NCBI GenBank assembly: GCA_964453155.1
Contig: CAYVQU010000007.1
Coordinates: forward strand, 3,036 to 67,035
Reading direction: 5' to 3'
DNA from: an uncultured Anaerolineales bacterium
GTDB taxonomy: Bacteria; Chloroflexota; Anaerolineae; Anaerolineales; UBA11858
Length of the DNA stretch: 64,000 bases
Of the stretch, positions 40,616-64,000 are shown piece by piece. The notes under the pieces were generated by a model. That model did not search any database. It saw only the letters and a list, made by a program, of their open reading frames with translations, and was not told the origin of the DNA. The position numbers were made by a program, and so were the translations under genes. Each line of letters starts with the position of its first letter. The first letter of the stretch is position 1.

Positions 40616-43600
40616 TTAAGAATTTGATTCTTTCGATTGGACCACGACTTGGGCGCGCTGGGCTTGTAAGGCCTCCCGGAGTTCGCTAGCTGCAGTGTGC
40701 AGCATCGCCTGAGGATCAGTGGTTGCTCGAATTTTGGTTGTAATTTCAGTTACCAGGCGCTCGCGGGCGGCCCGCCGTTGGGTGGTATCGAGCAAGCGCA
40801 AGGTTTCGGCTGCCAGACCAAACTGCTCGCTGACAGCCTCAGCAATCGCAATATCATCGGGTGACCAAGAGTCTTTGTCGGGAGGTAAATTGAAGCCCAA
40901 AGCCCCAATGGGTTCATCGCGAAGTAGCACGGGGACGGCCAAGATTGTATTGGTGCCATTCTCGTCTGCTAAAACGATGGAACGCTTTTCTTGCATGGCG
41001 ACTTGTACTTCAGGTAGTAACTCATTTCCTAATGGAATGATATCGGCATCCGTACTTTGATATCCGGTTTTTGTCTGATTTTGTGTGAATTCAGACCAGG
41101 CCTGGGTCAAGTAACGCCGTTGCGTGCGTTCTAACTCAACCAGCGCAGTTTGGGTTTGTTCGAACAGACGAGTATTTTGAATCGCGCTGGCAATCTGGTT
41201 GGCCATCGTAGTCAGACTGGCAGCATCTTCGGGGGTGAATGCATGAGCTGCCGTGCTCTGAATAGTGAGGGCCCCAAATGTAGATCCTCGGCTGGTCAGC
41301 GGTAAGGCCATCTCTGAGCGGGTGTCTGGTAAGTGGGGGTTGCGTAAGTGTATCGGTGCTTGCTCCACTTCAAGCTGAACATCAGCTTGACCGCTCTCAA
41401 TACACCGACCGATCATGGATCCGCCACCGACCTCTAATTTCCAGTTTTGAGCCAACATTTGCTGCCCCGCCTCGCCGGTACCGGCCTGGAGGTCGGCCCA
41501 TTGCTGGCTCTCATCTACCAGGAATAAACCCACATAGTAGAGATTGAACCGATCGCGGATGACGTCCACAACACGAGGGAGCAAAACATCAACATCCAAG
41601 ATGGATGAGATTGCACCCGCAACTTCTGCCGCGGCACTTAATTGGGCCGACCGTCGTTCATTCAAAGCTAGGCTGGCTTGCATTTCATCAAACAATCGGG
41701 TATTCATCAATGCCGCGGAAATCTGGTTGGCAACTGAAGTTGCTAGACCCAGATCCATATTTGTAAAGTCAGGACTTTCGAGGCGTTTGATGAGCGTCAT
41801 TGTGCCGAAGGTTTCGCGCTGAGAATGTAGCGGCGCGATGATAATTGAACCAGCTCCGAAATCTTCCCGCCTTTTTTGTGCCTCCGGGCTTTCACGGGGA
41901 TCGGGGATCATTGTTTTTGGAGAGAAAATGGGTTCCAGATCGCGCAATGCCAACCCACTTAACCCCTCCCATAACTCTCCATAACTGGCTCGATCAAATT
42001 CTTCTGGGGCGTGGGGGCCAGCCATGCTCACCAACTCAACGGTTTCAGTAGCGGTATCGATGATGTTGATTACTACGATATCGGCCTGAGTCCCATCAGC
42101 AGTCCCTTCTACGGCTGCCTGGACCGCCTCAGCCACGCTGGTAACATCTCTTAGCCGACGGCTGGTAATATTGAGGATATTAGCGCGATTGAGGGCCGCA
42201 CTGGTGGTGACCGAGAGTTTTAGCCCATGAAGACTACTGCTGATATATTCGGCCAGATTGAGATATTGGCTGCTAATTTGGGGGCTATATTCAAAGATCA
42301 CATATCCGTGACTGGTTGTTTGGTGGTAAATAGGGCGGATGACCAATGAAACGGACTGCGTTTCTGGGAGAAGTTGATCAGGAATGATCTGACTTTTGGG
42401 GAGCAGCGTGTCGGTTAAAACCCCGGTGGAAGTAAAAAGGATGGGGATTTGATACTGGTTCGCGGCAATTTCGTTATCGGGTTGTAAAATCAACCCAAAA
42501 CCAGGGACGCCTAAAAATTGCAGCCCGTTGGCCATGATTTCGTAAAATGTAGGAAAATCCGCGGCAGTATTGAGGGCTTGTCCCCATTCACGAATATTGG
42601 TTGTGAATTGTTCGGTTGAATTTTGGCGCTGCTTCTGACCTCGAAGGGCGATATCACTTAACAGGGTTTGGGATTGAAATAGCCAGGTTTCGATTTGGGC
42701 ACTTAACGTCAACTCCTTGAAATCAGGCGGTAATAGGAATTGCCGCAGAAATCTCAGCATGTTTTGCCAGTGTTGAAGTTGGTCGGTTTGAGTTTGAAGT
42801 TGTGTGAATATCCGATTAACTGACCGGATAAATTTGGTTTCATCCTGGGTTTTGATGACGGCCGCAAAAGCAGCGATCAGGTCTGCCGTCGCCCAGGTTT
42901 CATTTGTTGGAATCTCTGCTTTCTCGTTGAGCATGGCGGAAAGCTTTTCTTTTTGTGGGGCTAAGGCGGTTACATCCAACCGGATTTCGGGTGGCGCGCC
43001 CTCGGTAGTTTGTGGCTGGATGGGCAAACATCCACAAGACTCCCTGGTCACCAGAGCGGTAGCCAGCCGGACGATTGGTTCAACTTCAATCCCGTTAATT
43101 TGTTTGAGCAGCAGTTCAACGGCCATCTGACCTTGTCGATGAATGGGTTGGTGGACAGTTGTGAGGGGCGGGGCTGAAAAATTCCCGTCTTCAATGTTAT
43201 CGAAGCCGACGACTGCGATGTCTTGGGGAACATGCAGATCAAAAGATGGCAATGCGGCCATGATCCCAATTGCCATCGTGTCATCGACACATACAATGGC
43301 ATCAACTTTGGCCTGACGATCTGTAAGCAAAGTTGTCACCGCCCCAGTAGGATCAGTATCAAAATCAGGGGGAACCACTAAGTTGGGATCGAATTCGATC
43401 TCATGATCGTTCAGGGCGGCAAGATAAGCCTGGTATCGTTCTTCGGCCTCCGAATTCCCGGCATATTGCTGAATGAAAGCAATATTTCGATAGCCATGAT
43501 CGTCAATTAAGTGAGATACAGCCTGATACATCCCCGAATGGTTATCAATTAATAAACTGGGAATATTTTCCAGCCCTAAAGCAATACTTACAGTGGGTAG

Positions 43601-43924
43601 GGAGGGAAATGTGGCCTGAATTGTTTGGCGAGCCTGTTCAGCAGTATCTGAAAATAACGTGCCGGAGGCAATAATTAACCCGGCAACTGTTTCGGCGGCT
43701 ATCAGTTCGTAAATTGCGTTTTCTTGGGCTGCAAACGGTTCATTTCCCTGAAATCCTCCCCCAATAAAAGTGACCAGGTTAACTTGAAGATTTTCAGCCG
43801 CCGCGACAACACCCTGCCATAAAGTTTGTTGATATCCCAGGGAAATATCATCAATGATGAACCCAATTGTAGGGTATGAATTCCGTTGGCTTTGAGCGGC
43901 GTTCTGTTGGGCTGCAGTGGCCAT
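40616..43924 (-). CDS. Cytoplasmic sensor protein: LacI-type periplasmic-binding-protein-fold ligand domain (no HTH) + GAF + GAF(A-type) + half-GAF + conserved tail; no output domain
   Basis: aa 17-296 (IGFIIDDISLGY...VAGLIIASG...GYRNIAFIQ...VDAIVCVDDTMAIGIMAAL...DIAVVGFDNIE...PPLTTVHQP) match the LacI/PurR sugar-binding core without the N-terminal HTH. A-type GAF RDRFNLYYVGLFLVD...LPDTRSEMALPL...ALTIQS. Tail TTQRRAARERLVTEITTKIRATTDPQAMLHTAASELREAL. Confidence 0.8.
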   Translation of the reverse strand: MATAAQQNAAQSQRNSYPTIGFIIDDISLGYQQTLWQGVVAAAENLQVNLVTFIGGGFQGNEPFAAQENAIYELIAAETVAGLIIASGTLFSDTAEQARQTIQATFPSLPTVSIALGLENIPSLLIDNHSGMYQAVSHLIDDHGYRNIAFIQQYAGNSEAEERYQAYLAALNDHEIEFDPNLVVPPDFDTDPTGAVTTLLTDRQAKVDAIVCVDDTMAIGIMAALPSFDLHVPQDIAVVGFDNIEDGNFSAPPLTTVHQPIHRQGQMAVELLLKQINGIEVEPIVRLATALVTRESCGCLPIQPQTTEGAPPEIRLDVTALAPQKEKLSAMLNEKAEIPTNETWATADLIAAFAAVIKTQDETKFIRSVNRIFTQLQTQTDQLQHWQNMLRFLRQFLLPPDFKELTLSAQIETWLFQSQTLLSDIALRGQKQRQNSTEQFTTNIREWGQALNTAADFPTFYEIMANGLQFLGVPGFGLILQPDNEIAANQYQIPILFTSTGVLTDTLLPKSQIIPDQLLPETQSVSLVIRPIYHQTTSHGYVIFEYSPQISSQYLNLAEYISSSLHGLKLSVTTSAALNRANILNITSRRLRDVTSVAEAVQAAVEGTADGTQADIVVINIIDTATETVELVSMAGPHAPEEFDRASYGELWEGLSGLALRDLEPIFSPKTMIPDPRESPEAQKRREDFGAGSIIIAPLHSQRETFGTMTLIKRLESPDFTNMDLGLATSVANQISAALMNTRLFDEMQASLALNERRSAQLSAAAEVAGAISSILDVDVLLPRVVDVIRDRFNLYYVGLFLVDESQQWADLQAGTGEAGQQMLAQNWKLEVGGGSMIGRCIESGQADVQLEVEQAPIHLRNPHLPDTRSEMALPLTSRGSTFGALTIQSTAAHAFTPEDAASLTTMANQIASAIQNTRLFEQTQTALVELERTQRRYLTQAWSEFTQNQTKTGYQSTDADIIPLGNELLPEVQVAMQEKRSIVLADENGTNTILAVPVLLRDEPIGALGFNLPPDKDSWSPDDIAIAEAVSEQFGLAAETLRLLDTTQRRAARERLVTEITTKIRATTDPQAMLHTAASELREALQAQRAQVVVQSKESNS
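43037..43876 (-). other. LacI-family-type ligand-binding (Peripla_BP) domain of the 1102-aa protein
   Basis: Coordinates from residue counting (aa 17-296). No helix-turn-helix precedes it; only 16 residues lie upstream. Confidence 0.65.
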
Positions 43925-45654
43925 TAGCGGGTCTCCTCACGGGCTGAATTGTTGGCATTTGATCCGTTTTCAGGAGCAGACGCGGAATCCTGTTCGGGGA
44001 TAGAACCAAACTGGACAAAAGAGCTGGAGGCTCCCAAGGTTTGGGCGACTTCTTGAATAATCGTGTTCATTAAGTTTTCAATATCACCGGCGCGATGTAG
44101 TTTATCGGTGAGGCTGGCCGTAGTCTGTTCGCGCTCGGCCCGACGTTGGGTTTCCTCATACAACCGGGCGGTATCTAAGGTGGATTCAAGTCGGTCAGTT
44201 AAAGTACTTAAGAAATTTATCTCGGTCGTCGTCCAGGCCCCGGAATCATTTTTTTTCTGAACATCGAGTTGACCGACGACCTGCCCGCGGATCTGAATGG
44301 GTATCGATCGAATTTGCTCATTTTCTGGTTCAGGTACGACCTCTGGAGAGCGGATTTCATTTATTCCGGTTTGATTACGCCGATACCCGACCTGACCATA
44401 ACGGCTGAGAAATTCCTGCCAGTCTGTTTGAGTTTGTTGACGGTAAGCTTTTCTTTCGGCTTCTAACGCGGCTTCTTTTTCGCTCAATAATTCGACATTC
44501 GATAACAACACTGCAATCTGGTCAGCCAAAATTTGGAATGAATTGGTCGTAGCCGGGCCAAATGGTTGCCTGAGGCGACTTTGCAAGGAAATCATCCCCA
44601 GAATTTCTTGCCGGGATCGTAAGGGTAAGATGGCAATTGCTTCGGTGTTGGATAACAAATATGGGAAATCGTCGCTAGTAATTTCGGGATCGATTACGCG
44701 TGATTGGGCTTGCGAGGTGGTCAATACTTCACCAAAAATACCCTCTTTTGCCGGAAACTCATCGTAAAGGTTGGGTAAATTTTGCCCAAATCCACCACTG
44801 CTGGCCTGGATCGATAAAGTGTCCCGATTGGCATTTAATGTCAGAATTCCGACATGAATTAAATCAAACCGATCTTCGATCAAGGTAGCTGCTTGAAACA
44901 TCAATAACTCGGGTTCTAAAATTAAAGAAATTTGACGGCTAATTTCCGTGACTGTTCCTAATATCGATGACCGGGCCTGTAGTGTTTTCGTTTGTTCCTG
45001 GAGAGCGCTTTGTTGTTCCTCTAATTCGGTAGTTAAAACTCGACTTTGGCTAAGCGTAGTGAAAAGGTTGTTTAAGATGGCCGACACCGATGAAACAACC
45101 ACAATACCAATGACCAAAAAGGTCGTACCAGTACTAAACCAAGCTGACCAATTATCTGGTTGGGTGAGTATCTCGATAGCGGCATATCCATAGGGGAGGA
45201 TCGCCTGCTGGAATAAATACCCAAACAGCAACCAGGTGAAATAACTAACGAAAGATAAGATTAAACCCACTCGGCCGCGAATGAAGATGGCAGCAAAGAT
45301 TGGCGCACTAACCAACCATAAACGCCCATCTCCGACCAGGCCTGTTTCGAAAGTCGATAACAACCCTAGCAGGTACAGCAGAAGGATAAAGCTGCCGGCT
45401 CTTAAATTGTAGGCAATTCTACGGATATAAGTAATACTGATCAGCCAGAAATACACCCCAATATAAATTCCCAAGAATACCCAACTACCCCGTTGGGCCA
45501 ACGTATAAATGCTGATGAGAACGATAAAAAAGCCAGCAAAAGTACCTAAGGTTAAGATCGCTGAAAAAACGCGCTCTCGCCAAACCTGAAGCGTGACATC
45601 CTCGTCACCCTCAGATTGAGTAAATAGCGGTTCCAGAAAAGGAACAAAATTCAT
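43924..45654 (-). CDS. Membrane sensor paralogue: polytopic N-terminal module + coiled-coil + degenerate A-type GAF + half-GAF + conserved tail
   Basis: About 6 hydrophobic spans (WRERVFSAILTLGTFAGFF...). EDRFDLIHVGILTLN... GAF. KAYRQQTQTDWQEFL linker. IPIQIRGQVVGQLDV. Tail ETQRRAEREQTTASLTDKLHRAGDIENLMNTIIQEVAQTLG. TAATG overlap with the downstream gene. Confidence 0.8.
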   Translation of the reverse strand: MNFVPFLEPLFTQSEGDEDVTLQVWRERVFSAILTLGTFAGFFIVLISIYTLAQRGSWVFLGIYIGVYFWLISITYIRRIAYNLRAGSFILLLYLLGLLSTFETGLVGDGRLWLVSAPIFAAIFIRGRVGLILSFVSYFTWLLFGYLFQQAILPYGYAAIEILTQPDNWSAWFSTGTTFLVIGIVVVSSVSAILNNLFTTLSQSRVLTTELEEQQSALQEQTKTLQARSSILGTVTEISRQISLILEPELLMFQAATLIEDRFDLIHVGILTLNANRDTLSIQASSGGFGQNLPNLYDEFPAKEGIFGEVLTTSQAQSRVIDPEITSDDFPYLLSNTEAIAILPLRSRQEILGMISLQSRLRQPFGPATTNSFQILADQIAVLLSNVELLSEKEAALEAERKAYRQQTQTDWQEFLSRYGQVGYRRNQTGINEIRSPEVVPEPENEQIRSIPIQIRGQVVGQLDVQKKNDSGAWTTTEINFLSTLTDRLESTLDTARLYEETQRRAEREQTTASLTDKLHRAGDIENLMNTIIQEVAQTLGASSSFVQFGSIPEQDSASAPENGSNANNSAREETR

Positions 45655-45656: not shown

Positions 45657-48527
45657 TTATAGCTCCTCCTGGAGATTTTTAAGATCGTCGGTAAGACGGA
45701 TCGATACTTCTTCAAGGGGCAAAGAATCATAGATTTCATTCACCGCAGTTTGCAAAATCGTTTCAATATTCAGGCTAGATCGTAACCGAGTCGTGATTTC
45801 TCCGATGATTTGCTCTCGGACGGCTCTTTGTTGGGAATCCCGATAAAGTCTGGCCCCTTCCAAGGCAACTCCCAATTGCTCAATGATCGTTTGCACTACT
45901 TGTAGTTCTTCGGGGGCCCAGTTGCCGGCTTCGATCGGTTTATGCGTATTCAATACCCCAATCGTCGTATCGCGCACCTTAATTGGAATAGCCAGGTTAT
46001 GACTCCCTTTTTCAGTGGATTGGGTAATATCTCCGGCCCGTAAAGCTGTCTTTTCGATATTTGTGGATTGATCTTCAACCGCAATGAGACCTTGTTCACT
46101 GCTCTTGTAACCCAGGGTGCTCTGGGTAGCTAAAGTCTCTGTCCAGGCTTGGTCACTGATCTCGCCATAAGCCCGGCGAGAAGCTACCAGGGCATCTTGT
46201 GTTTGGGTATACAAGTTGGCATTATCGATGGCGACACTCACTAGATCTGCCATTGTTTGGAGAATGGCAATGCTGGCGTCATCGAAGGAATCAGGTTCAG
46301 AATCCTGAATAGTGAGGGCCCCGATAATTTGCCCGCGAACTCTTAGCGGCAGCGCGGCCTCCGAACGAGTTTCGGGTAGTTCTTCAGTTGCCAGGCGCAC
46401 AGCATCCGCACCTGCCTCCAGCGCAATTCGGGCTTCGGCATTAGCAATACTCCAACCGATCATCCCTTGGCCAACTTGAATGCGGTGTTGACGAGCTAAC
46501 ATTTTCTGCCCAGCTTCCCCTGAACCAGCCCGGAGATACGCCCATTCCCGCGACTGATCTACTAAGAACAAACCCACATAATAAAGGTTGAAACGTTCTC
46601 GAATGACCTCCACAACCTCCTGGAGCAATTGAGTGGGATCGAGCATCGCAGAAGCAGCCCGGCCTACATCCGCGGCGGCCTGGAGGTGGGTGGATCGTTT
46701 TTCCAGGTCGCGGGTGCGATCGCTGACACGTTGTTCCAAGGACCCGATCGATTCCAATAATTGTTCCGTCATTTGGTTGAAGGATTGAGCCAAAATTCCA
46801 ATTTCATCCTGGCTGACTACCGGTGCGATTCTGGTCAGATCACCCTGGGAAATCGCAGTTGCAGTTTCGGTCAGACTAGCAATCGGGCGGATGGCCTGAC
46901 GGATCGCCAGCGTAGTCAGCCCTCCCAACAAAATTATGCCTACGACCATGGTCAACCCCACTGCAGACTGGAAAGCATTCAAAGGTCTGAGTAGTTCAGC
47001 CTCTTTTTGTTGGACAACTACCCCCCAGCCATTTTCCAGCCGTGCTGCGATCGCAATCCAATTCTCGCCATTTTCATCGGTAAATTCGACCAATTCGACC
47101 AGTTTGTCACTTTCTGAGCGCCGTAGGGCCGTGATGGCGGGGTCGGTGGAAAAATCTGCAAGAGAATATTGTTGATCGGGGTGAATCAACACCTGGTTAT
47201 TATGGTCAACAATATAACTAAATCCGGTTTCACCGATCTGATAAATATCAAGCGAAGTGCGGAAATCCTCCAGAGTAGAGGCCAGCATACCGATACCGAC
47301 CAATTCGTTCTGGGATGAATAAATTGGTTTAGCGATTACCAACGCGGGTTCGCCACTCGTTTTGCCAATTAGACTTTGATATGCGATTGGTTCACCGGCC
47401 AATATTTTTTGAACATATTGCCGATCACTATTATCTTTATTGGGGGCACCATCGCTGCGGGAGACATTTACGCCATCTAACCCAATTGTGCTAATCAAAT
47501 AAATATGTTCAAACGCTTGATCAACGCTTTCCAAAATGGGTCTTTGCGAGTTTGCGTTCATTGAACGCACAGAACCCAATTCAATTACGGCATCTAAGGC
47601 ATTGATGCTATAGGTTAGCGAGGTTTCAACTGACTTTGAAATGGTCTGGTTGCTTGTGGCTAGATCTTGAATGGCGTTTGATTTAATAAATACACCTGCC
47701 CGGGAAATAACGAAGGTAGAAATGGCCAACATCAACGGCAATGCGATCGCCAGGACTAATATCGTTAAGCGCGGTTGCAAGTTCCCCCGTTGCAAATGGC
47801 GCTCAGAGAGCATTTGCGCAAAGGCGGCGTACCCATATCCAACCACGAAGACAGTACTGGTGATGAGCAGGGCCAAAGATACTTCGATCGTGAAGATTAG
47901 CGAGATATTTACAATTTGGGCGGCGACTTGGGTTCCTAACAGAATAAAAGCCAGGCGCCGGGTGGTACTCGGGAGGGTGCGATCAAAGAACGCAAAATAG
48001 AACTGAGGAATGATGACAAAAATGGATAGACCATAAATCATCAATCCCCGGAACCAAGCTGAAATCTCACCTTGGGTGTAGGTAGAAATTGGCAGATACC
48101 CCCCCAGGTAAGTATCGGGGTTGAACCCCGAATACCATAGATTGGTGGCGGTCGTGAGATCCAGAATTGTCAACACCAGTGGTGCAAAAAATAGAGCGTA
48201 CAACCCCCACCATAAATATTTCAGACGGCTTTGCAGCCATCGTTCTTTAAGCAAAATGATTGTGACGATCAGCAATCCCGGTTGGGCCATTGGAGTAGTG
48301 ACCGCGATCAGAATACTCGGGAGACGGGCTTGATCGAACAACTCGGCAATGGTGAAAGCCCCAATCGCATAGGAGTTGATGGCAAAAATAATCATCAATA
48401 TCCCAACCCGACGGTTTGCATTTGCCCAGGGGTTTAATAAGATGATGTAGAGACCCAAGATAAATTCGATCAGGGCCACTGACCAGGCAAACATCTGGAT
48501 GATTTCTAATGTTTCAAGTTGGAACAT
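45657..48527 (-). CDS. Membrane sensor paralogue: 7TM-type N-terminal domain + Cache-like extracytoplasmic domain + HAMP + A-type GAF + half-GAF + conserved tail
   Basis: Start placed at ATG 48527 (AGGAG 8 nt upstream); the alternative ATG 48545 overlaps the upstream gene. HAMP: RPIASLTETATAISQGDLTRIAPVVSQDEIGILAQSFNQMTEQL. GAF: RERFNLYYVGLFLVD...LPETRSEAALPLRVRGQIIGALTIQD. Tail DSQQRAVREQIIGEITTRLRSSLNIETILQTAVNEIYDSL. Confidence 0.8.
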   Translation of the reverse strand: MFQLETLEIIQMFAWSVALIEFILGLYIILLNPWANANRRVGILMIIFAINSYAIGAFTIAELFDQARLPSILIAVTTPMAQPGLLIVTIILLKERWLQSRLKYLWWGLYALFFAPLVLTILDLTTATNLWYSGFNPDTYLGGYLPISTYTQGEISAWFRGLMIYGLSIFVIIPQFYFAFFDRTLPSTTRRLAFILLGTQVAAQIVNISLIFTIEVSLALLITSTVFVVGYGYAAFAQMLSERHLQRGNLQPRLTILVLAIALPLMLAISTFVISRAGVFIKSNAIQDLATSNQTISKSVETSLTYSINALDAVIELGSVRSMNANSQRPILESVDQAFEHIYLISTIGLDGVNVSRSDGAPNKDNSDRQYVQKILAGEPIAYQSLIGKTSGEPALVIAKPIYSSQNELVGIGMLASTLEDFRTSLDIYQIGETGFSYIVDHNNQVLIHPDQQYSLADFSTDPAITALRRSESDKLVELVEFTDENGENWIAIAARLENGWGVVVQQKEAELLRPLNAFQSAVGLTMVVGIILLGGLTTLAIRQAIRPIASLTETATAISQGDLTRIAPVVSQDEIGILAQSFNQMTEQLLESIGSLEQRVSDRTRDLEKRSTHLQAAADVGRAASAMLDPTQLLQEVVEVIRERFNLYYVGLFLVDQSREWAYLRAGSGEAGQKMLARQHRIQVGQGMIGWSIANAEARIALEAGADAVRLATEELPETRSEAALPLRVRGQIIGALTIQDSEPDSFDDASIAILQTMADLVSVAIDNANLYTQTQDALVASRRAYGEISDQAWTETLATQSTLGYKSSEQGLIAVEDQSTNIEKTALRAGDITQSTEKGSHNLAIPIKVRDTTIGVLNTHKPIEAGNWAPEELQVVQTIIEQLGVALEGARLYRDSQQRAVREQIIGEITTRLRSSLNIETILQTAVNEIYDSLPLEEVSIRLTDDLKNLQEEL

Positions 48528-55833: not shown

Positions 55834-58593
55834 TCACTCGGTTTCAGTTGGGGCTTCCAACCGGATGGTGACATCGTAAAGCCCTAATGCATCGCGCATT
55901 TCTTGAATGGTTGATCTCAGAACTGTATTGACATCCAGGGTCTCACGAACCTTCGATGTGATTTCGGCTGTTCGCTGTTCTTGGGCTGCCCGGAACTGGG
56001 TTACCTCTAACAGGCGAGCGTTATCTAACGCCAGGGCTAAACGCTCAGCAATATCATTGACTAGCTCCACCATTTCGGGGGTTATTTCTTCGTTATCTAC
56101 AGATAGATCGATGCTACCCAGGACTGTGTCCCGTAAGATAATTGGGATATCAAGTCGATTTGAACCATTTTCTTCTTGTGATGCGGTCTCAAATATGGGC
56201 TGAATTTGGGCCTCGTGATACCGATAACCACTGCTGGCCAGTGATCTTTGAGTCCATTCTTGCCACGATCGCCGGGTATATTCACCGTAGGCACTCTGCA
56301 ATTCTTCGACCGTAAATTGGAGCTCGGATAATAACTGGTTATTACGGATTGCGATGGCTAATTGATCGGCCATAACTTGCAAAACAACGATATCCTCATC
56401 GTCGAACGCGCCTTGTTCCGTGCTTTGGACATCCAAAGCGCCAATAATGGTTTCACCGACTTTTAGCGGTAAGGCCATTTCTGATCGGGTTTCGGGGAGG
56501 AGCGGATGGGCAAAGTGAGTAACATCTAACCCCACATCCAGGGCAATATGAGGTCGCCCGGTGGCGGTGGTATCACCTACAATCCCAACTTCGCCTACCT
56601 TAAGTTTGTGGTTTTGGGCTAACATTTGCTGGCCGCCTTCACTGCTGGCCGCCTGAAGAACGGCAAACTCCCCCGGTGCATCCAGCAGGAATATCGCAGC
56701 ATGGTAAAACCCAAATCGATCCTCAACCAAATCTACGGCGTTACTCAATAAGGTGTCCAAATCAGAGGCCGCGCTGGCATCGCGGGCAATTTCAGCCGCA
56801 GTTTGAAGTTGTAATGCCCGGCGTTCCAATTCAAGGGTACGATCCGTTACTTGCGATTCCAGCCCAGAGAGTAGATTACGCATCTGGGCCGTCATACTAT
56901 TAAATGTTCCAGCCAGCCGGCCAATCTCATCTTCGGCCACGATGGGCACTTGAATTGTCAGGTCACCAGCTGATATCCGTTCAACCAACTCAGTCAGATT
57001 ACTGATCGGCGCACCAATTAAGCGCGCCGCCCAAATCGCGGCAATAGTCACAATCCCGGTAATCACGATCCCCATCACCAAATTGAACCGGGTTTGGGTA
57101 CCCGCGGCAACCAAAAAAGTTTCTTGGGGCTGGAAGAAGGCGACTTTCCAGGGGCGATTTTCAAGCCGATAAACGGCCACCTGGCTGGTTTCTGCTAACC
57201 AATCGTTGGCTTCTAGAGCAAAAACGGGCGTTGTCTTGGCGTTGTTTAGTCTGTCTTCAAGAGCTGGCTGGTTGATGGTTAGGTTATCGACTGTATCGTT
57301 GGGTAACCGCTGGGAGTCAACAAGATTTTCAAGTCTGGCTGAATTAAATGGAACAACCGATTTGAATTGGTTCTCCGGGTTGCTACCATGGGCCAATTGA
57401 ATATTCAAATCATCAAAAAGGACGCCAAACGAGTTTTCACCACCAGCTTCATTTCGTTCTGCAATCAGGTCTTGTAGGATCGCGGCATCGTAACGCACAA
57501 TCAATAAGCCCAAAGGTTTGTCGCCAATTGATTTAGTTCCTGCTGCGAAATATAAGCTGGAACTCTGTTCGCCTTCATCCAGCATAACCGGCGAGATGAA
57601 GGGGAGATCGGCCACCAAAGCAATTTGCAGGTTTTGTACTACGGTTGGGTTTAAACCCAAGTATTCGGGGATTTGAGTTGTTGACTGAGGGTAACTGGCG
57701 ATCGTATTCCCATCGCGATCTAGTAAATGGTATGACTTGATATAGTCTGGATTCTTGCTGGTTAAAAGCTGCAAGGTATTGATGACCCCGCTCCTGAGAA
57801 TATTGAGACCTTCGGGAGGCAGTTCAAGCGTGCTGCGGAAAATGTCGATTTGGGCGTCTGATTGAATAATATCCAGGTTATCCTGAATGAATTGGTCAAT
57901 TTCACCCCCGGTATGACTGGCAACCAGAGCCAGATTTTGGCTAGCAACATCGGTCAGTGCATTACGGGAGGCAACATTATTGATATAGATCAGAAAACTG
58001 AGGGGAATAATTGCCACCCCAATAAACATAACCAATAATTTTGCCAGCATTGTGAAACTAGAAAACCGTCGAATTAAGACCGTCGCCCCTAATGCCAAGA
58101 TAGAAATAACTGCAATCGGAATAATTATCTCTGAGTTGGGCATCGCGGGGCGCCCAGTATTCCCGTACAAATCCAAAATGATCCCGGCAATCCCACCAAC
58201 AGCGCCTAAGAATATAGCCCGGGGGAGGTTGTGCCGCGGTAGGGTAAACCCGCCAACTGCCCCAACCACCAGGGGAATGCTGAACAGCATAATCCACCCA
58301 TAACCAGCCACCAAAAAAGAAATTAATGGAATGAAAAGGCTGATACCAAATAGTAAAAACCATATTCCTTGAATAGCTTTCCCTCGCCGGCATAGGATCG
58401 TTGCCCAAATACTAATAATCGCAACGCTCAGGGTAATGGCTGCGATCCCCTGCATGGGGATAATACTCCGGTTGAACCCCACCGTAGCCAATGTGGCTGT
58501 AAAAATTACGTGCAAGCCAGCCAATAGTGCTGAAATACGCAGCGCTAGACGGGGGTTGGGCGATTGATTAGGGATGAGAGATTGTGTAGTCAT
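55834..58593 (-). CDS. Membrane sensor paralogue: ~7 TM + double-Cache-like extracytoplasmic domain + TM + HAMP + A-type GAF + half-GAF + conserved tail
   Basis: HAMP: APISNLTELVERISAGDLTIQVPIVAEDEIGRLAGTFNSMTAQM. DRTLELERRALQLQTAAEIARD connector. GAF: EDRFGFYHAAIFLLD...LPETRSEMALPLKVGETIIGALDVQS. SAYGEYTRRSWQEW. Tail VTQFRAAQEQRTAEITSKVRETLDVNTVLRSTIQEMRDAL. Confidence 0.8.
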   Translation of the reverse strand: MTTQSLIPNQSPNPRLALRISALLAGLHVIFTATLATVGFNRSIIPMQGIAAITLSVAIISIWATILCRRGKAIQGIWFLLFGISLFIPLISFLVAGYGWIMLFSIPLVVGAVGGFTLPRHNLPRAIFLGAVGGIAGIILDLYGNTGRPAMPNSEIIIPIAVISILALGATVLIRRFSSFTMLAKLLVMFIGVAIIPLSFLIYINNVASRNALTDVASQNLALVASHTGGEIDQFIQDNLDIIQSDAQIDIFRSTLELPPEGLNILRSGVINTLQLLTSKNPDYIKSYHLLDRDGNTIASYPQSTTQIPEYLGLNPTVVQNLQIALVADLPFISPVMLDEGEQSSSLYFAAGTKSIGDKPLGLLIVRYDAAILQDLIAERNEAGGENSFGVLFDDLNIQLAHGSNPENQFKSVVPFNSARLENLVDSQRLPNDTVDNLTINQPALEDRLNNAKTTPVFALEANDWLAETSQVAVYRLENRPWKVAFFQPQETFLVAAGTQTRFNLVMGIVITGIVTIAAIWAARLIGAPISNLTELVERISAGDLTIQVPIVAEDEIGRLAGTFNSMTAQMRNLLSGLESQVTDRTLELERRALQLQTAAEIARDASAASDLDTLLSNAVDLVEDRFGFYHAAIFLLDAPGEFAVLQAASSEGGQQMLAQNHKLKVGEVGIVGDTTATGRPHIALDVGLDVTHFAHPLLPETRSEMALPLKVGETIIGALDVQSTEQGAFDDEDIVVLQVMADQLAIAIRNNQLLSELQFTVEELQSAYGEYTRRSWQEWTQRSLASSGYRYHEAQIQPIFETASQEENGSNRLDIPIILRDTVLGSIDLSVDNEEITPEMVELVNDIAERLALALDNARLLEVTQFRAAQEQRTAEITSKVRETLDVNTVLRSTIQEMRDALGLYDVTIRLEAPTETE

Positions 58594-58603: not shown

Positions 58604-60856
58604 TTACTTGCGAGTCGGATCGATGACGATTGAGGCGTCGGCCACGTTGGGTAATTGGCCTAGTTCGCGCACTGCGGTGCGAATAATGCTGTCGATATCA
58701 ATCGCCCGTGAAAGTCGATTTGAAATCTCACTAACGGTTTGTTCATGCTCGGCCCGTTTTTGGGTTTCATCGAGCAACCGGGCATTATCAAGGGCAATCG
58801 CTACTTGACTGATGGAATCTTGAACTAAATTTAAGTCTTCAGGTGCCCACGGGAGATCGGTTGCTTCTCGGCGAAGCATAATGGTGCCCAGATGTTGATC
58901 GCGCAGTGTAATCGGTACGGAGAGAATATGGCCATTTTCAGCGCTCAAGATTTGGGGTTGATGACGGTTTTGGTGATCCAAGATGCTAATTTGCTCAGTG
59001 CTTGCTGGGGTAACTCGCACTCGATCAAAATAGTAAGCCCGAGGTTGCCCGGTTAATCGGCGGCTCCAGCCTAATCGCATTTCTCTCCCTTGGGTTTGGA
59101 GCAACTCGTCCACCGCACTCTGACTTTGTTCAAGCAATCGGGCATTCTCGATTGCCAAAGAAATTTGGTCGGCTAATACTTGCAATACTTCAACATCGGG
59201 ACCAGAGAATGCCGCGGGTTCGGTAGACTGCACATCTAAAACGCCAATTACCCGTGACCGGATCTTGAGTGGCAAAGCCATCTCAGAACGAGTATTTGGC
59301 AAGTCGGGGTTATCAAAGAAATAGGCATCCGAACCAACATCCAGGGCAATCCTGGGTAATCCAGTTGAAGCTACATATCCCACAACCCCACTTTGCCCGA
59401 CTTCAAGTTTGTGCCCTCGGGACAGCATTTTCTGCCCCCCAATACTGTTGGCCGCTTGTAATACAGCAAATTGGCGGACATTGTCGAGCAAAAAGATACC
59501 GGTATGATAAAAATCAAAGTGATCTGAAATCAGTTCGGCGGTGTATATCAACATTTCATCCAAGTTACGGATGGCGGCAGTTTCTCGGGCAACCAAGGCG
59601 GTGGCTTCCAATTGGCGGCTACGACGTTCAAGCGAACTAGTCCGATCCAAAACCTGGGTTTCTAGCGAGCGATAAAGTTGAGACAAATCATCCGCCATCT
59701 GGTTGAATGTAAAAGATAATTGTCCAATTTCGTCATTACGGTCAACTTGGGCGCGGTGGTCCCATTTTCCTTGGGCAAACTGGGCGGTTATTTCGGTCAG
59801 GTTGATCAGGGGCTTAACCAATCGTTGGGTTCCGATTAGGGTTGCGATGATCACAAATAAACCCAAGGTTACTGCGATCCCTACGATAAAAACACCTAAC
59901 GAATTTAAGCGCCCAAAAGCCACCGAAGTGGGTATTTCAATGACCAATCCAGCCCCTAATGATGGTAACCAGGTGTAATCAGTAATTACCGTTTCTCCAG
60001 AGAAGGATGATATGGTACTAATTTTGTGTTGACTACCTGGCGTTCGAAAAGTGTAAACATCTCGGAATGGCAGGAGGACTTCGGTTTGGCTGTTCGTCGG
60101 TTGCCGGACGGTTAAGGTTTCTTGGTAGGGGTCGATCCCAATAAATTCATTTTGAGCCGTAATAATGTAACTGCTTGCTTGGGGATAATTTCGAGAAACC
60201 TCGTTTAAGAAATTTTGAATACTCAATGAACCAGAGTACCCAAATATTGTCGCAACCAACACATCATCTTGATAAATAGGTACACTAGTGACAACGACCA
60301 GTTCATCTGATGTTAAAGGTCCAGGGCCAAATTCGGCGATCGAACCAGCTTTGGATGACAATGTCTCATAAAAATTGGTATTGGCAACAGACTGCTTGTG
60401 CCACTCTGGGCGGGTGGCAATAAAAATCTCTCCAGAGGGGATGGTGATGAAAAATTCATTGAAGAGTAGTTGGTCTCCAGATTTGGTGGTAGCCTGCAAC
60501 TTTTCTAGAATTGCATCTTTTGCCGCAATGAACTCATAGTTTGATGCAATTCGAATACGGGTGGCTGTCATTAGCTCTTCCTGAAAATCTTCATTGCGGG
60601 CGGCGAGATCCAGGCGGATAATTTTGGTGGTCAACCAAGAATCGATGTCCAGGGCAAAGCGGTTCAAGTTAGTAAATAACTGCGTATTATTTTGATCCTG
60701 TAAAGCTGTTCGAGCAAGAACATAAGTAACGCCCCCCATAATCATCACGGCAATAAGCGTGATCGGCAGCACAATGAATAGAAATGTATTACGAGCTCGA
60801 CCGCTAAATCGGGGAACCGGTTCTAGGGGAGAATTAAAGTTTGGAGTGGATGCCAT
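58604..60856 (-). CDS. Membrane sensor paralogue: TM + Cache-like domain + TM + HAMP + A-type GAF + half-GAF + conserved tail
   Basis: HAMP: KPLINLTEITAQFAQGKWDHRAQVDRNDEIGQLSFTFNQMADDL. GAF: SDHFDFYHTGIFLLD...LPNTRSEMALPLKIRSRVIGVLDVQS. Tail ETQKRAEHEQTVSEISNRLSRAIDIDSIIRTAVRELGQL. Confidence 0.8.
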   Translation of the reverse strand: MASTPNFNSPLEPVPRFSGRARNTFLFIVLPITLIAVMIMGGVTYVLARTALQDQNNTQLFTNLNRFALDIDSWLTTKIIRLDLAARNEDFQEELMTATRIRIASNYEFIAAKDAILEKLQATTKSGDQLLFNEFFITIPSGEIFIATRPEWHKQSVANTNFYETLSSKAGSIAEFGPGPLTSDELVVVTSVPIYQDDVLVATIFGYSGSLSIQNFLNEVSRNYPQASSYIITAQNEFIGIDPYQETLTVRQPTNSQTEVLLPFRDVYTFRTPGSQHKISTISSFSGETVITDYTWLPSLGAGLVIEIPTSVAFGRLNSLGVFIVGIAVTLGLFVIIATLIGTQRLVKPLINLTEITAQFAQGKWDHRAQVDRNDEIGQLSFTFNQMADDLSQLYRSLETQVLDRTSSLERRSRQLEATALVARETAAIRNLDEMLIYTAELISDHFDFYHTGIFLLDNVRQFAVLQAANSIGGQKMLSRGHKLEVGQSGVVGYVASTGLPRIALDVGSDAYFFDNPDLPNTRSEMALPLKIRSRVIGVLDVQSTEPAAFSGPDVEVLQVLADQISLAIENARLLEQSQSAVDELLQTQGREMRLGWSRRLTGQPRAYYFDRVRVTPASTEQISILDHQNRHQPQILSAENGHILSVPITLRDQHLGTIMLRREATDLPWAPEDLNLVQDSISQVAIALDNARLLDETQKRAEHEQTVSEISNRLSRAIDIDSIIRTAVRELGQLPNVADASIVIDPTRK

Positions 60857-60942: not shown

Positions 60943-62577
60943 TTACTCTGGATCGGTAGTTTCGAGTTGTATCAAACCATCGGTGGCTTGCAAAGTTTGT
61001 CCTAATTCACTCAATGTCGTTTGAAGAATGGTATCGATATTGGTTGATGTCCAAGCTTTACCGGTGAGTTCTGAAACGATCCGGTCGTGTTGCGCGGTGC
61101 GTTGCGTTTCTTCCACCAGCCTTACATTTTCAAGTGCTAAGGCAGCTTGGGTTGAAACGGCTTCGACAAAAGCTTGATCTTCGGGGGTCCAAGGCCCTTG
61201 ATTGCTTTCAAGTTGGATATTGCCAATGACTTGATCGCGCAACACCAGGGGGTGACTGATCCGTGAAACCTGGGCTGAATCGTCAGCTGTGGCCGCCGCC
61301 TGACTTTCGAAAGAAAATATCAGATCTTGTTCCTTGGCGATTACTTGGGTCCAAGCTTCACCGAGGTATTGTTGGTGTAAACGCTGGATCTCTGCCAGGT
61401 TTGTCTGTGACTGCTGGAATAAACGGGCGTTTTCCAGGGCAGTTGCCAAACCATCGGCAACCCCTTGCAACACAATAATATCGTCCTGGTCAAAGGCTTC
61501 CGCTTCAGCCGACTGGATGGTCAACGCACCTAATACTTGCGGACCACTAATCATCGGCAAGGCTAATTCTGAACGGGTTTCTGGTAAATGCGGATTCTCA
61601 AACCGTACTGCGTCTTGACCGACATCTAACGCAATCCTGGCCTGACGTCTAGAGATGGACCAACCGATCATCGAGGTCCCCCCAATGGGCAGGCTGTGGC
61701 GGCTGGCTATCATCGCCTCGCCAGCTATGCCAGTTCCGGCCCGCAATACAGCGTATAAGCCCGAAGTATCAATCAGGAACACCCCAACATAATAAAGGTT
61801 GAAACGCTCTTGCACTAAATCCACAACCTGCTGGAACAACCGTTCTGGATCAAGTTCAGCACTGATTGTGCGGGAAATTTCAGCGGCTGTTCGTACCTGC
61901 ACTTCACGTCGTTCGAGTTCCTGGGTGCGACGTTCGAGCCGCTGACGGTCAGCTTCCAGATCCGTGGCCAGCTGGCGACCGCGCTGGAGACTGCGGTTCA
62001 GCCCGTTGACGATTGCACCCAAGCATAAGATGATCAGCACGCTTACGGCTAGTACCGGAATACTGGTGCTAATCCAAGATGAAAAAACAACCGGTTCGAA
62101 AACGCCGGTAATATCAGGGGGCGCAACAATCCCGCGGTTCATCGCCCATCCCATACTAATCAGGGTTGCCAGGCTAAAGATTGCCGCAGCAAACCCTTGC
62201 CAGGCTCCAAGAAATAAAGCTGTCAAAATGATAAACCCGAGCAGCCAGACGCGGGTATCACCCGCAGTGCCGTATTGCAACCCCGAAATAATGCCAAAGG
62301 CATACAGCATGAAAAGCATCACACTTGCCCGTAGCGTGTAGGGGAGGTTGGGCGAGAAGGCGATGATGGCAATACTGACGAATGCCGCGGTGTAAACAAT
62401 GGCCCACCCCCAAGTGCCATTTTGAAAGGCCAGGACCATATTGATAGCATAGGCCGCGGAACCTACCAGTACCGCACCAAAAAGGGTGAGTGCTACGATG
62501 CGTTCGCGCCAATATTGAACTTCATTTTCAGAGGTTGCCGTGCGGGGGGTTAGTAAGTTGCTGAAGTATCTTCTCAT
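60943..62577 (-). CDS. Membrane sensor paralogue: polytopic N-terminal module + coiled-coil + A-type GAF + half-GAF + conserved tail
   Basis: YWRERIVALTLFGAVLVG..., about 6 spans. RRTQELERREVQVRTAAEISRTI. QERFNLYYVGVFLID...NPHLPETRSELALPMISGPQVLGALTIQS. Tail ETQRTAQHDRIVSELTGKAWTSTNIDTILQTTLSELGQTL. 4-nt overlap with the upstream gene. Confidence 0.8.
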   Translation of the reverse strand: MRRYFSNLLTPRTATSENEVQYWRERIVALTLFGAVLVGSAAYAINMVLAFQNGTWGWAIVYTAAFVSIAIIAFSPNLPYTLRASVMLFMLYAFGIISGLQYGTAGDTRVWLLGFIILTALFLGAWQGFAAAIFSLATLISMGWAMNRGIVAPPDITGVFEPVVFSSWISTSIPVLAVSVLIILCLGAIVNGLNRSLQRGRQLATDLEADRQRLERRTQELERREVQVRTAAEISRTISAELDPERLFQQVVDLVQERFNLYYVGVFLIDTSGLYAVLRAGTGIAGEAMIASRHSLPIGGTSMIGWSISRRQARIALDVGQDAVRFENPHLPETRSELALPMISGPQVLGALTIQSAEAEAFDQDDIIVLQGVADGLATALENARLFQQSQTNLAEIQRLHQQYLGEAWTQVIAKEQDLIFSFESQAAATADDSAQVSRISHPLVLRDQVIGNIQLESNQGPWTPEDQAFVEAVSTQAALALENVRLVEETQRTAQHDRIVSELTGKAWTSTNIDTILQTTLSELGQTLQATDGLIQLETTDPE

Positions 62578-64000
62578 TGGGAAGAATCCTCCCGGTTGGT
62601 TCCATTGTCGTGAGGACTGTCAATATCTAATGGGTCGAGGGTGATGTTGATTTGAGCGCGTTGGGCCCCTAATGCTTTACTCAGTTCTTCAGCCGTGGTT
62701 GCTAATACGCTCGGCATATCGATTGCATGACGAATCTTACTGGTGACTTCATATAACTGCCGGTCACGATTTGCTCGATCTTGGGCGGTTTCGATGAGTT
62801 TAGCATTCCGGATTGCAATGCCAACCTGGGCCGCCAGCGTGGTAAGGAGTTGTAAATCATCTTCATCAAACCGGTGTTCTTTTTCAGTATCCTGGACGAC
62901 AATGGCACCTAAAACGTCACCACCCACAATGAGGGGTACCCCTAACCAGGATTGGGCCCAGGTATCGCCGGTGACAATGGCGCCTAAAGCTCGGCTGCGG
63001 TTAACGGTATCTTCTACGATCATGAGGGGCTGTTGGCTGCGGATAATGATTGAAGTTAAACCCTGGCCCAAAGGGAACGGAGGGACAGTAATAATTTCAC
63101 CATCTTCGTCCATATATGGAATTTCAATCATGTCCACCACCGGATCGTAAGATGCAATCAAGAAACTGACATCTCCCATCACCTGGACAATTTGGTGATG
63201 AATAATTTCGTAGAGGTTCGCTAAACTGGTTTCGGCTGAAATGGATTGGCTGATTGTATTGATGGTTTGTAATTCGGCCAAACGTTGGGTGATCATTTCG
63301 AGTGCATTCACCTTTTCGAGGGCCGTAATGGTCATTTCAGTGAGACTGTTGAATGTCTCGAGAATAGCAGCGGTAAACGGCTCGGATTCAGCAGTACCCA
63401 AAATTAATAAAGCAGCTAACTTCTCGTCGACTCTAACTGGGAAAACAGCCGTAATCGGAAAATCTAAATGCGCTACGATGGCTTTCAAAGGATCAGGGAA
63501 ATTGGTGTTTGGACTGCTCTTTTGAATTAGTATCGGAACGACTGCCGGAATTTGGGTAACCCAAGTGTGATCTGGGGTCGGGATGATGAAACCATCTCCA
63601 TCGGTAGCTGAGCCTTCACGATCTAATACCAAAACACTTTTTAATTCTTTGGCTTCAGATAAAAAGATCGCGGCCGAATAGGGAACCAGCCGCATGGTTT
63701 CAGATAGAGCCTGAAAAACACTCTCAAAAGTTTCCGCTTCGGCAATCGTATGGCTGGCCCGATAAAGCAGGGAGGTCGCTTGAAGATCGGTTTGGGTTGT
63801 TTCGAGTATTTGAATGTTTTTGATGGCCGATGCAATTTGGTTCGCCAGGGTTTGCAAGGTGAAAATATCGTCCTCGCCGAAAGCATCCAGGTGTGAATTT
63901 TGAACGTCTAAGGCTCCTAAAATCTCGCCACCCAAACTTAATGGAATACCAACTTCAGATTTGGTTGCTGGCAAACTTTCGATCGGTAAGTAATAGGGGT
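62574..64000 (-). CDS. Multi-GAF paralogue (A-type, C-type and B-type GAF + conserved tail); N-terminus lies beyond the window edge
   Basis: The track starts this ORF at a TTG in the middle of a GAF domain (LPATKSEVGIPLSLGGEILGALDVQN). The frame stays open to position 64000 (..PYYLPIESLPATKSE), so the gene continues upstream. B-type GAF ...AQSWLGVPLIVGGDVLGAIVVQD.... Tail TAQDRANRDRQLYEVTSKIRHAIDMPSVLATTAEELSKAL. Confidence 0.8.
   Translation of the reverse strand, partial: PYYLPIESLPATKSEVGIPLSLGGEILGALDVQNSHLDAFGEDDIFTLQTLANQIASAIKNIQILETTQTDLQATSLLYRASHTIAEAETFESVFQALSETMRLVPYSAAIFLSEAKELKSVLVLDREGSATDGDGFIIPTPDHTWVTQIPAVVPILIQKSSPNTNFPDPLKAIVAHLDFPITAVFPVRVDEKLAALLILGTAESEPFTAAILETFNSLTEMTITALEKVNALEMITQRLAELQTINTISQSISAETSLANLYEIIHHQIVQVMGDVSFLIASYDPVVDMIEIPYMDEDGEIITVPPFPLGQGLTSIIIRSQQPLMIVEDTVNRSRALGAIVTGDTWAQSWLGVPLIVGGDVLGAIVVQDTEKEHRFDEDDLQLLTTLAAQVGIAIRNAKLIETAQDRANRDRQLYEVTSKIRHAIDMPSVLATTAEELSKALGAQRAQINITLDPLDIDSPHDNGTNREDSSQ

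Follow-up and report, generated by a model that had tools for sequence, protein, structure and literature searches.

How does a sensor protein signal when it lacks an output domain? This long-standing question is raised by a stretch of 64,000 nucleotides from an uncultured Anaerolineales bacterium (GenBank assembly GCA_964453155.1, contig CAYVQU010000007.1, positions 3,036 to 67,035 of the forward strand), here called the window, in whose own coordinates all features are given. Its minus strand carries, from 40616 to 64000, ten co-directional open reading frames (ORFs) for paralogous sensors, g1 to g10, with one C-terminal cassette in common, and the ten gene ends listed in a preliminary description of this DNA are all ends of minus-strand ORFs. 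Analysis of the window by ORF calling and by Pfam and NCBIfam profile searches, which underlie the domain assignments below, revealed in g1 to g10 no HisKA/HATPase, GGDEF/EAL, HD-GYP, cyclase, phosphodiesterase, PP2C, MCPsignal, helix-turn-helix (HTH) or other DNA-binding domain, so that the sensors do lack a recognisable output, as had been claimed. The family to which they belong is large, real and uncharacterised; its domains are known ones, but its conserved ending is distinctive, and so are its genomic surroundings, which include a conserved coupling to a ParA-like ATPase through a peptide-bearing protein encoded downstream of it. The reading that we prefer, and to which we give a probability of roughly 0.45, is that these kinase-less receptors would signal through contacts of their tandem GAF domains and truncated ending with multi-GAF kinases, in an assembly handled by a dedicated ParA.

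In sediments, wastewater sludge, sponges and the subsurface, few bacteria are more abundant than the Anaerolineae, of whose signalling, to our knowledge, little is known from experiments. This one bacterial class appears to devote much coding capacity to receptors without recognised output.

The C-terminal cassette and its ending

The cassette is colinear in g1 to g9, where it is about 330–360 amino acids (aa) long and 26–35% identical, and alignment gives its order as a signalling helix, a first GAF domain (GAF-A), a tryptophan-containing helix, a small alpha/beta domain and a tail. It had been ascribed to all ten genes; nine of them carry it, and in the tenth, g10, the GAF domains differ and only the last ~55 residues are the same. 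A hidden Markov model (HMM) of the tail scores 57–74 bits in all ten proteins, and their GAF-A domains, found by Pfam with E-values of 1e-10 to 1e-31, belong to the GAF superfamily by both profile and fold. Profiles for GGDEF, EAL, HD-GYP and cyclase domains gave only sub-threshold partial matches on g1 to g10, lying over GAF and HAMP parts, and the C-terminal part was assigned by neither database to a known catalytic or output domain.

AlphaFold2 (AF2) monomer models were obtained for residues 213–570 of g4 (predicted local distance difference test, pLDDT, 89.7; 56 sequences) and for the cassette of g1 (pLDDT 92.5; 148 sequences). Both begin with the signalling helix, a canonical GAF-A and a ~50-residue helix with an invariant tryptophan, and continue with a five-stranded alpha/beta domain (GAF-B), a 45-residue helix, a turn and a 15-residue helix, the last with a pLDDT of about 90 in the deeper, g1 model. 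Foldseek searches with the whole cassette model matched the tandem GAF-A/GAF-B modules of PDE2A, PDE5, PDE6 and CyaB2 (E = 1e-10 to 1e-9), and GAF-A alone, which is PtsP/NifA-like, matched the PtsP GAF with a template-modelling score of about 0.8 (3ci6, 3trc). Because of the AF2 fold and these tandem-GAF matches, what had been described as a linker followed by a half-GAF is now read as one compact domain, predicted to be a complete GAF of unusually small size (~120 aa). In its fold the cassette corresponds to a tandem-GAF regulatory module from which the enzyme normally under its control is missing.

The chain then ends with the tail, of ~54 residues and hereafter termed the stub, which is the defining and most constrained element of the family. 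A profile search of the PDB aligned it with the first ~45 residues of cyanobacteriochrome-type GAFs (6oap, 8w26, 6bhn), as in the alignment with 6oap, ERERVVSQITQKIHQTLDLEEILQTTVTEVRQFLQADRVFV, and hhalign matched the stub to the family's own signalling helix together with the first helix and first strand of GAF-A (probability 86.6%, E = 4e-6). A Pfam search with the tail alone returned no family, its sole trace being a weak match to GAF positions 1–26. These alignments indicate that the stub comprises the connecting helix and the opening helix and strand of one more GAF that is never completed; the tail, previously set apart as a separate element, appears homologous to GAF N-terminal parts and is no new fold. 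Nor does it qualify as a photosensory cyanobacteriochrome or phytochrome GAF, of which only the first ~45 residues are present before the chain ends.

Two other identities for the stub were considered. The first, which was rejected, was a degenerate dimerisation and histidine phosphotransfer (DHp) domain, which would make the sensors pseudo-kinases; a clean hhalign comparison with the DHp domains of the neighbouring kinases gave a probability of 0.5%, and an earlier match at 98% was an artefact of the GAF terminal helix being present in both alignments. The second was that the strand of the stub completes GAF-B within the same chain, which is not supported by the two AF2 monomer models, where this strand is coil.

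Across 374 distinct sequences the stub has the consensus ARL[YL]xETQRRAARE[RQ]LxxE[IV]TxR[MI]RxxLDxExxLxTAVxELxxALGxxxxx[VI]RL, or in short form ARLxxETQRRAARE...LD...L.TA..EL..ALG.....VRL. Its TQRRAARE segment is the best conserved (mean pairwise identity 52%, compared with 40% for GAF-A and 15–40% for parts of GAF-B, the variable b1–b3 region of which is 15% identical across the family); this segment is basic and its arginines are near-invariant. The tail HMM also distinguishes the C-terminal ending from internal GAF junctions, with a median of 70 bits at the former versus about 22 at the latter. Family members with three or more GAFs keep the stub at the end, after which comes an extension that varies in length and is acidic or rich in proline.

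The occurrence of this ending elsewhere was determined by scanning one genome per species for the motif [ETD]TQRRAARE, which gave more than 599 pattern matches, of which 193 were confirmed and the best 71 loci analysed (20 kb or less each, 1.06 Mb in all), their ORFs being called and searched with profiles built from the window. These best 71 of 193 loci are all from Chloroflexota, mostly metagenome-assembled genomes of Anaerolineae, Anaerolineales and Thermoflexales. Within them 414 ORFs terminate with the stub, and a full C-terminal module is followed by a median of 12 residues (349 of 364 ORFs). Of all genes called, 60% bear the stub; these 375 genes occur at a median of 8 per 20-kb locus, and single contigs hold 15 or more family copies. 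All 304 consecutive pairs of stub genes lie on the same strand, with a median gap of 3 bp between adjacent genes. The cassette architecture recurs in each of the 71 loci from other genomes, which is far beyond chance.

Among 117 N-terminal regions sampled for input domains, HAMP was found in 55, dCache_1 in 29, MASE11 in 13, PAS in 12, extra GAFs in 12 and LacI-type domains in 9, along with sCache, dCache_3 and CHASE4; the 120 best database homologues added 4HB_MCP and TarH. No output domain, MCPsignal included, was seen in either set. A crude hydropathy count places most members among the membrane proteins. The family, observed here only in Chloroflexota and mostly in Anaerolineae, is one of kinase-less transmembrane and cytoplasmic receptors with a variable input and a constant cassette.

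With a threshold of E <= 1e-20, the cassette has matches in at least 2,410 database proteins. An exhaustive search of representative sequences gave 71,542 matches, mostly giant multi-GAF proteins, and is unusable for a family count because the profile also matches every GAF–GAF junction, while a word-index protein search with the C-terminal module returned mostly short fragments that say little about architecture. The preliminary description had left undecided whether the family is catalogued: it has no Pfam or NCBIfam model of its own, the 120 best homologues are named only ‘GAF domain-containing protein’ or ‘hypothetical’, and a literature search on Anaerolineae with GAF and on output-less GAF sensors found no paper on it. 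One locus, L004 (ENA ERZ25039513 contig_10988; L numbers are our own for the loci), has many genes split into short ORFs with the same Pfam match (transketolase, polyprenyl synthase, GAF sensors). Long-read frameshifts left uncorrected typically split genes in this way, and the contig shows that some short ‘GAF domain-containing’ entries in the database have arisen as artefacts of assembly; this frameshift-ridden assembly was left out.

The ParA-like ATPase and the proteins encoded beside it

Immediately after g1 lies a gene for a ParA/Soj-type P-loop ATPase of 260 aa (39825–40607, minus strand) with a deviant Walker A motif, EKGGVAKTT (read NEKGGVAKTT). The gene starts 8 bp after the end of g1 and overlaps the start of the following kinase gene by 35 bp. 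Its product is placed in the ParA/MinD family by Pfam AAA_31 (E = 8e-49), by the CbiA, MipZ and ParA profiles and by its closest solved structures, ParA and Soj (E = 1e-35 to 1e-40). Orthologous genes, 44–71% identical to that of the window, occur inside or beside the arrays of 16 of the 71 loci, always on the strand of the array. The gene upstream of ParA could be assigned in 12 of the 16 and bears the stub, with the one exception of a kinase gene in L055; the next gene is usually overlapped by 4–35 bp, and the ParA genes are translationally coupled to those of the array. No parB adjoins them: in 18 of 18 cases the product of the next gene is a giant kinase or a GAF protein, and clustering of the neighbours gave no ParB-like family.

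The proteins encoded directly downstream of ParA are of two types. One is a giant PAS–multi-GAF hybrid kinase (window, L005, L023, L034, L050), and the other a member of the sensor family itself (L006, L007, L009, L013, L019, L059, L073, L075), in which a peptide and a 100–300-residue acidic/proline-rich linker precede MASE11 or transmembrane helices, GAF-A, GAF-B and the stub. An N-terminal peptide with the core (R/Q/H)(L/I/V)xx(L/I)F(S/A), followed by an acidic stretch, is present on 14 of 14 such downstream proteins (window, L005–L007, L009, L013, L017, L019, L023, L034, L050, L059, L073, L075). In the giant kinase of the window it reads MSKQKELHNRLNDLFSDLE (DNA about 39803–39859, minus strand), and further examples are MAKKRKDLSGQLDGLFSDF and MSDNDLRDHLSGLFSDL. 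The strict pattern is found at no other N-terminus among 640 genes and, within 828,000 residues of translated ORFs, at a single internal site.

The same association was approached from the other side, starting from ParA homologues in the protein database (62–71% identity) and taking four long contigs, L076–L079. All four have the gene order of the window, namely stub-bearing sensors, ParA, the giant multi-GAF kinase, a threonine-synthase-like protein with a receiver domain (ThrC-like-REC), an EamA transporter gene and an OmpR-type regulator on the opposite strand, and all four kinases start with the core motif of the peptide, bringing the total to 18 of 18. The conserved genomic coupling of the family to ParA through the peptide-bearing downstream protein is thereby shown. 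Partners of ParA/MinD ATPases commonly act via short charged peptides (PMC11407121), and it is probable, from the one-to-one pairing of motif and gene, that ParA recognises this one.

The adjoining ParA and giant kinase genes are as the preliminary description had them, and its suggestion that their linkage to the cassette be sought in other genomes is answered by the 16 of 71 loci with ParA and by the four ParA-first loci, where ParA and a multi-GAF kinase recur beside cassette genes. Three outcomes had been named as telling against the idea of a multi-receptor assembly, namely assignment of the C-terminal part to a known output domain, a cassette scattered through genomes away from ParA or kinase genes, and ordinary stand-alone GAF proteins with no mutual interaction, and none of them was encountered. 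The ParA link via a peptide on the next-encoded protein sharpens that idea, in which the cassette may serve as the interaction surface of the assembly.

Genes of the array and their neighbours

The giant hybrid histidine kinase of the window (2872 aa; 31241–39859, minus strand) comprises a PAS domain, a GAF-B-like domain, about 13 more GAFs, HisKA, HATPase and a receiver (REC) domain. Its residues 165–312 match the profile of the sensors' C-terminal module (E = 1.5e-18) and are a GAF-B of the same type as in the cassettes. The next gene (29414–31108, minus strand) encodes ThrC-like-REC, a pyridoxal-phosphate enzyme of threonine-synthase type (Pfam PALP) with a C-terminal receiver (Response_reg), which scores 230 bits against the NCBIfam threonine synthase model (cut-off 303) and has a Cys-rich N-terminal segment. 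It sits between the giant kinase and EamA genes in five contigs, the four others (L076:15874-17592, L077:14707-16401, L078:14379-16088, L079:15732-17423) being 63–80% identical. This protein may be the terminal response regulator and end point of the pathway; a receiver-controlled enzyme of amino-acid metabolism is an unusual response-regulator output. In L076–L079 the OmpR-type gene is kept beside the EamA gene. The plus strand of the window at 22778–28235 encodes a histidine kinase with three GAFs (22778–25873), a REC-GAF-HisKA-HATPase protein (25837–27447) and an OmpR-type regulator (27450–28235).

Histidine kinase genes are present in 16 of the 71 loci. Directly upstream of at least six arrays and on their strand (L017, L019, L049, L059, L065, L075), a set occupying about the first 7 kb consists of two stand-alone receivers and then a dCache-HAMP-GAF-HisKA-HATPase kinase, giving a kinase partner of a second type, one accompanied by CheY-like single-domain regulators. 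A fused, ‘Rosetta-stone’ protein, dCache-HAMP-GAF-A-GAF-B-GAF-HisKA-HATPase-REC-REC, is encoded at L033:10619-14701; there the stub region runs on into a complete third GAF.

The ten sensors, all encoded on the minus strand, differ in their input regions, as had been recognised, with dCache_1, MASE11, HAMP and LacI-type domains among them. The tally over g1 to g10 is GAF in ten, HAMP in four, dCache_1 in two (one sub-threshold), MASE11 in three and a LacI-type binding fold in one. The last of these belongs to g1 (1102 aa; 40616–43924; stub DNA 40646–40801; tail HMM 64 bits), in which the LacI-type ligand-binding domain (Pfam Peripla_BP_1/3/4) is followed by one extra GAF, GAF-A, GAF-B and the stub. 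Since NCBIfam repressor profiles align with it only from about position 50 on, its HTH is absent, in agreement with the earlier reading of this gene. MASE11 (PF20969; bioRxiv 10.1101/2021.11.05.467447) is the membrane domain that precedes GAF-A, GAF-B and the stub in g2 (576 aa; 43924–45654; stub 44011–44169; MASE11 E = 9e-27; tail HMM 69 bits), g4 (570 aa; 48532–50244; stub 48571–48732; identified by Pfam MASE11 and GAF and by the AF2 model of residues 213–570) and g9 (544 aa; 60943–62577; stub 60964–61125; MASE11 E = 5e-25; tail HMM 59 bits). The three score 94, 52 and 89 bits, respectively, against a Pfam cut-off of 27.3, so the polytopic module that these genes share, previously taken for novel, is a known one.

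Four members join their input to GAF-A, GAF-B and the stub through HAMP. A multi-transmembrane region and dCache_1 precede it in g3 (962 aa; 45657–48545; stub 45693–45854; Pfam dCache_1, HAMP and GAF; tail HMM 74 bits), and a multi-transmembrane region and an extracytoplasmic region without Pfam match in g7 (919 aa; 55834–58593; stub 55858–56019; Pfam HAMP and GAF; 70 bits). The input of g6 is two transmembrane helices separated by a loop (590 aa; 53562–55334; stub 53622–53768; Pfam HAMP and GAF; 61 bits), and that of g8 a transmembrane helix and a weak dCache-like region (750 aa; 58604–60856; stub 58628–58783; Pfam HAMP and GAF; dCache_1 E = 1e-4, below cut-off; 68 bits). The soluble g5 (495 aa; 50355–51842; stub 50406–50567; Pfam GAF only; 69 bits) has ~135 N-terminal aa without Pfam match, a divergent GAF-A, GAF-B and the stub. 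Lastly, g10 (62574–64000) is a partial multi-GAF protein with the same stub at its end (62646–62804; Pfam GAF twice; 58 bits); its frame is open to base 63998 without an upstream stop and is cut by the window edge at 64000, and because it runs off the window the array is one of ‘at least ten’ genes.

Three genes interrupt the array, all on its strand. Pfam matched the two that had been called FIST and STAS-like: a FIST_N + FIST_C protein (51872–53014; FIST E = 2e-50, FIST_C E = 2e-40), a stand-alone sensor that is only distantly NosP-like (77 bits against the NCBIfam NosP model, far under its cut-off of 450), and a SpoIIAA-like/STAS protein of 121 aa (53044–53409; 27 bits). The latter is the sole STAS domain of the array, the C-termini of the sensors being GAF plus stub and not STAS. 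FIST genes recur in 5 loci, including L029, L045, L047 and L061, and STAS genes in 5, often as pairs (L036, L037, L039, L051). The third (55409–55874), upstream of g6, is the remnant of a PhnD-like lipoprotein solute-binding gene. Its earlier description as dead is borne out by its two broken frames, and the PhnD identity is plausible, if weakly supported: the 42-aa frame matches positions 201–236 of Pfam Phosphonate-bd at E = 0.0025, below the Pfam threshold, and the 114-aa frame has a lipobox-like signal. Intact orphan solute-binding genes (NMT1, Peripla_BP_6, ABC_sub_bind, SBP_bac_1/3/11) are interspersed in other arrays, for example at L006:659-1666, L011:17916-19145, L049:18007-19020, L060:11933-12730 and L068:6865-7623, and no ABC permease or ATPase is among the annotated recurrent neighbour families of the loci. 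Together with the PhnD remnant, these genes suggest binding-protein-dependent sensing by adjacent members of the transmembrane–HAMP type.

At the far end of the window, positions 1–14804 of the plus strand hold a polysaccharide biosynthesis cluster with a flippase, two methyltransferases, several group-1 glycosyltransferases, a PMT_2-type transferase and an NDP-sugar dehydratase. The G+C content is 0.38–0.42 over the first 12 kb versus about 0.48 in the remaining window, and the cluster may have been acquired horizontally.

Possible routes of signalling and known systems

If the preferred reading is right, the receptors would be parallel dimers, like other HAMP/GAF sensors, taking their inputs through dCache, MASE11, 4HB/TarH, PAS or LacI-type domains, or through transmembrane–HAMP regions perhaps with a neighbouring orphan solute-binding protein. 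The input signal would pass along continuous helices and both GAFs and shift the terminal hairpin (the TQRRAARE... helix, turn, short helix and VRL strand), which would itself be the output, read by protein–protein contact rather than by catalysis. The likeliest readers would be the multi-GAF histidine kinases encoded with the arrays, in the window the 2872-aa hybrid kinase, the probable target of which would be the adjoining receiver-fused threonine-synthase-like enzyme; were the stub read by such kinases, many receptors would therefore converge on few kinases. ParA would be a dedicated partner, probably binding the N-terminal peptide of the next-encoded protein, be it the giant kinase or the membrane-anchored member with the acidic linker, and would position or partition the receptor–kinase assembly, as ParC/ParP and PpfA/TlpT do for chemoreceptor arrays. 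The part of this scheme that makes a kinase the reader of the stub is tentative, albeit quite possible.

Several observations weigh against this scheme. Kinase genes and ParA genes are each found in 16 of 71 loci, these being of 20 kb or less while arrays often extend beyond, and many arrays show neither nearby; a single cassette–kinase fusion is seen among about 400 family members; and the synteny of the closest relatives (ParA 62–83% identical) may partly reflect shared ancestry instead of functional coupling. A mean-field direct-coupling analysis of 320 C-terminal modules gave no docking signal for the stub, only local and gap artefacts, and the AF2 monomers leave the last ~17 residues, including the VRL strand, unstructured. 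No histidine phosphotransfer (Hpt) protein is in view that would carry phosphate from the hybrid kinase to ThrC-like-REC, and the STAS and FIST genes of the arrays could indicate another partner.

The receptors might instead be autonomous, GAF-based ligand sinks for nucleotides or metabolites or self-associating scaffolds without a common partner, the stub being a dimer-stabilising cap and the ParA and kinase links incidental synteny. The likeness of GAF-A to the ligand-binding PtsP GAFs (3ci6, 3trc), a tandem-GAF fold that is that of cyclic-nucleotide-binding modules, and the majority of loci without ParA or kinase inside the fetched 20 kb would all fit, but we consider this unlikely, as conservation peaks in the stub and not in a ligand pocket, the b1–b3 region of GAF-B is the very part that is 15% identical, near-invariant surface arginines across 71 genomes are needless for a mere cap, and the ParA–peptide rule holds in 18 of 18 cases. 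It is quite unlikely, too, that ParA itself is the output, with the arginine-rich TQRRAARER helix of the stub binding or stimulating it so that signals steer positioning (of the nucleoid, the division site or filament fragmentation) and the kinases form a parallel branch. ParA genes embedded in the arrays and translationally coupled to them speak for this, as do the basic character of the most conserved stub segment and the charged peptides commonly used by ParA/MinD partners, cited above. Against it, the stub motif lies within a long predicted helix and not at a flexible end, each ParA would be contested by dozens of stub-bearing proteins, and the N-terminal peptide is the likelier ParA contact because it, rather than the stub, tracks ParA one-to-one.

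The remaining alternatives concern other partners or no function at all. Docking of the stub to STAS/SpoIIAA-like proteins, FIST proteins or single receivers, by partner switching, would account for the STAS pairs, FIST genes and stand-alone REC pairs that recur beside arrays, and binding of its arginine-rich helix to RNA or DNA would suit the RRAARER sequence, which we take to resemble arginine-rich RNA-binding peptides; both are very unlikely, each such neighbour being present in only 5–8 of 71 loci, no HTH or known nucleic-acid-binding domain being found by Pfam or NCBIfam, and most members being polytopic membrane proteins. That the sensors are functionless, decaying remnants of multi-GAF kinases cut inside a GAF is scarcely credible, even though the stub is literally the start of a further GAF and a fused kinase version exists: about 400 genes, from 71 genomes, share one truncation point, no region is better conserved than the stub, and the arrays are operon-like, with intact reading frames closely packed. 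This conservation practically excludes decay.

We favour, then, contact of kinase-less receptors with multi-GAF kinases. Its most far-reaching form is a GAF-based array outside the methyl-accepting chemotaxis protein (MCP) class, in which tens of receptors and multi-GAF kinases would be joined through tandem GAFs and stub and positioned by ParA through the peptide, the receiver-controlled threonine-synthase-like enzyme and the EamA exporter giving a metabolic or secreted signal rather than motility; we regard this complete version as doubtful, though worth stating. On present evidence the family falls within known kinds, as GAF-based sensors working with two-component kinases, and there is a small, though not negligible, chance of its being a receptor array of a new kind. 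What is new is a searchable family definition, the 54-residue stub; a candidate partner set of ParA ATPase, recognition peptide, multi-GAF kinases and ThrC-like receiver protein; and a testable analogy with chemoreceptor arrays. If the assembly model is true, many signals would be integrated in an architecture that is new, and a cargo of a new type would be added to those of the ParA/MinD family.

Known systems illuminate separate parts of this picture. The modules of PDE2A, PDE5, PDE6 and CyaB2 have the same fold, two GAFs joined by a long helix, but regulate a catalytic domain fused at their C-terminus, whereas the chain of the family ends inside a third GAF and its GAF-B has ~120 aa. The multi-GAF histidine kinases of cyanobacteria and Chloroflexota, of which the giant kinase of the window is one, have GAF junctions homologous to the stub; unlike them, the family is without HisKA and HATPase and ends inside a GAF, and no bilin-binding GAF is implied. 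In the pairs NreA (GAF)–NreB, NosP (FIST)–kinase and RetS/LadS–GacS, sensors without phosphotransfer output modulate a kinase by contact, and here also several output-less inputs may act on one kinase in this manner. Those systems are single proteins or small sets with no known ParA link, while the family has tens of paralogues per genome with a conserved C-terminal element. The stressosome (RsbR paralogues, RsbS, RsbT) offers varied N-terminal sensors on one C-terminal module that builds a kinase-controlling complex, and some arrays have small STAS genes; its module, however, is STAS and not GAF, and no RsbT-like kinase or PP2C phosphatase was detected in the window.

Closest in logic, by analogy, would be the chemoreceptor array with ParC/ParP, as in Vibrio, or PpfA/TlpT, as in Rhodobacter sphaeroides. 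The family is not an MCP system, because neither the window nor the recurrent neighbour families of the related loci yielded MCPsignal, CheA, CheW, CheB or CheR, and it differs also in its module of tandem GAF and stub, its HisKA-type multi-GAF hybrid kinases and its very long tandem gene arrays. Both, however, have paralogous receptors in which dCache, 4HB/TarH, PAS and HAMP inputs lead to one C-terminal module, together with a co-encoded, dedicated ParA-like ATPase and a shared kinase, on which convergence is here a proposal. ParC and PpfA position chemoreceptor arrays, and, as in TlpT or in ParP with its array-integrating domain, the ParA-linking protein of the family would use its N-terminal region for that link and otherwise carry the receptors' own module (reviewed in PMC11407121).

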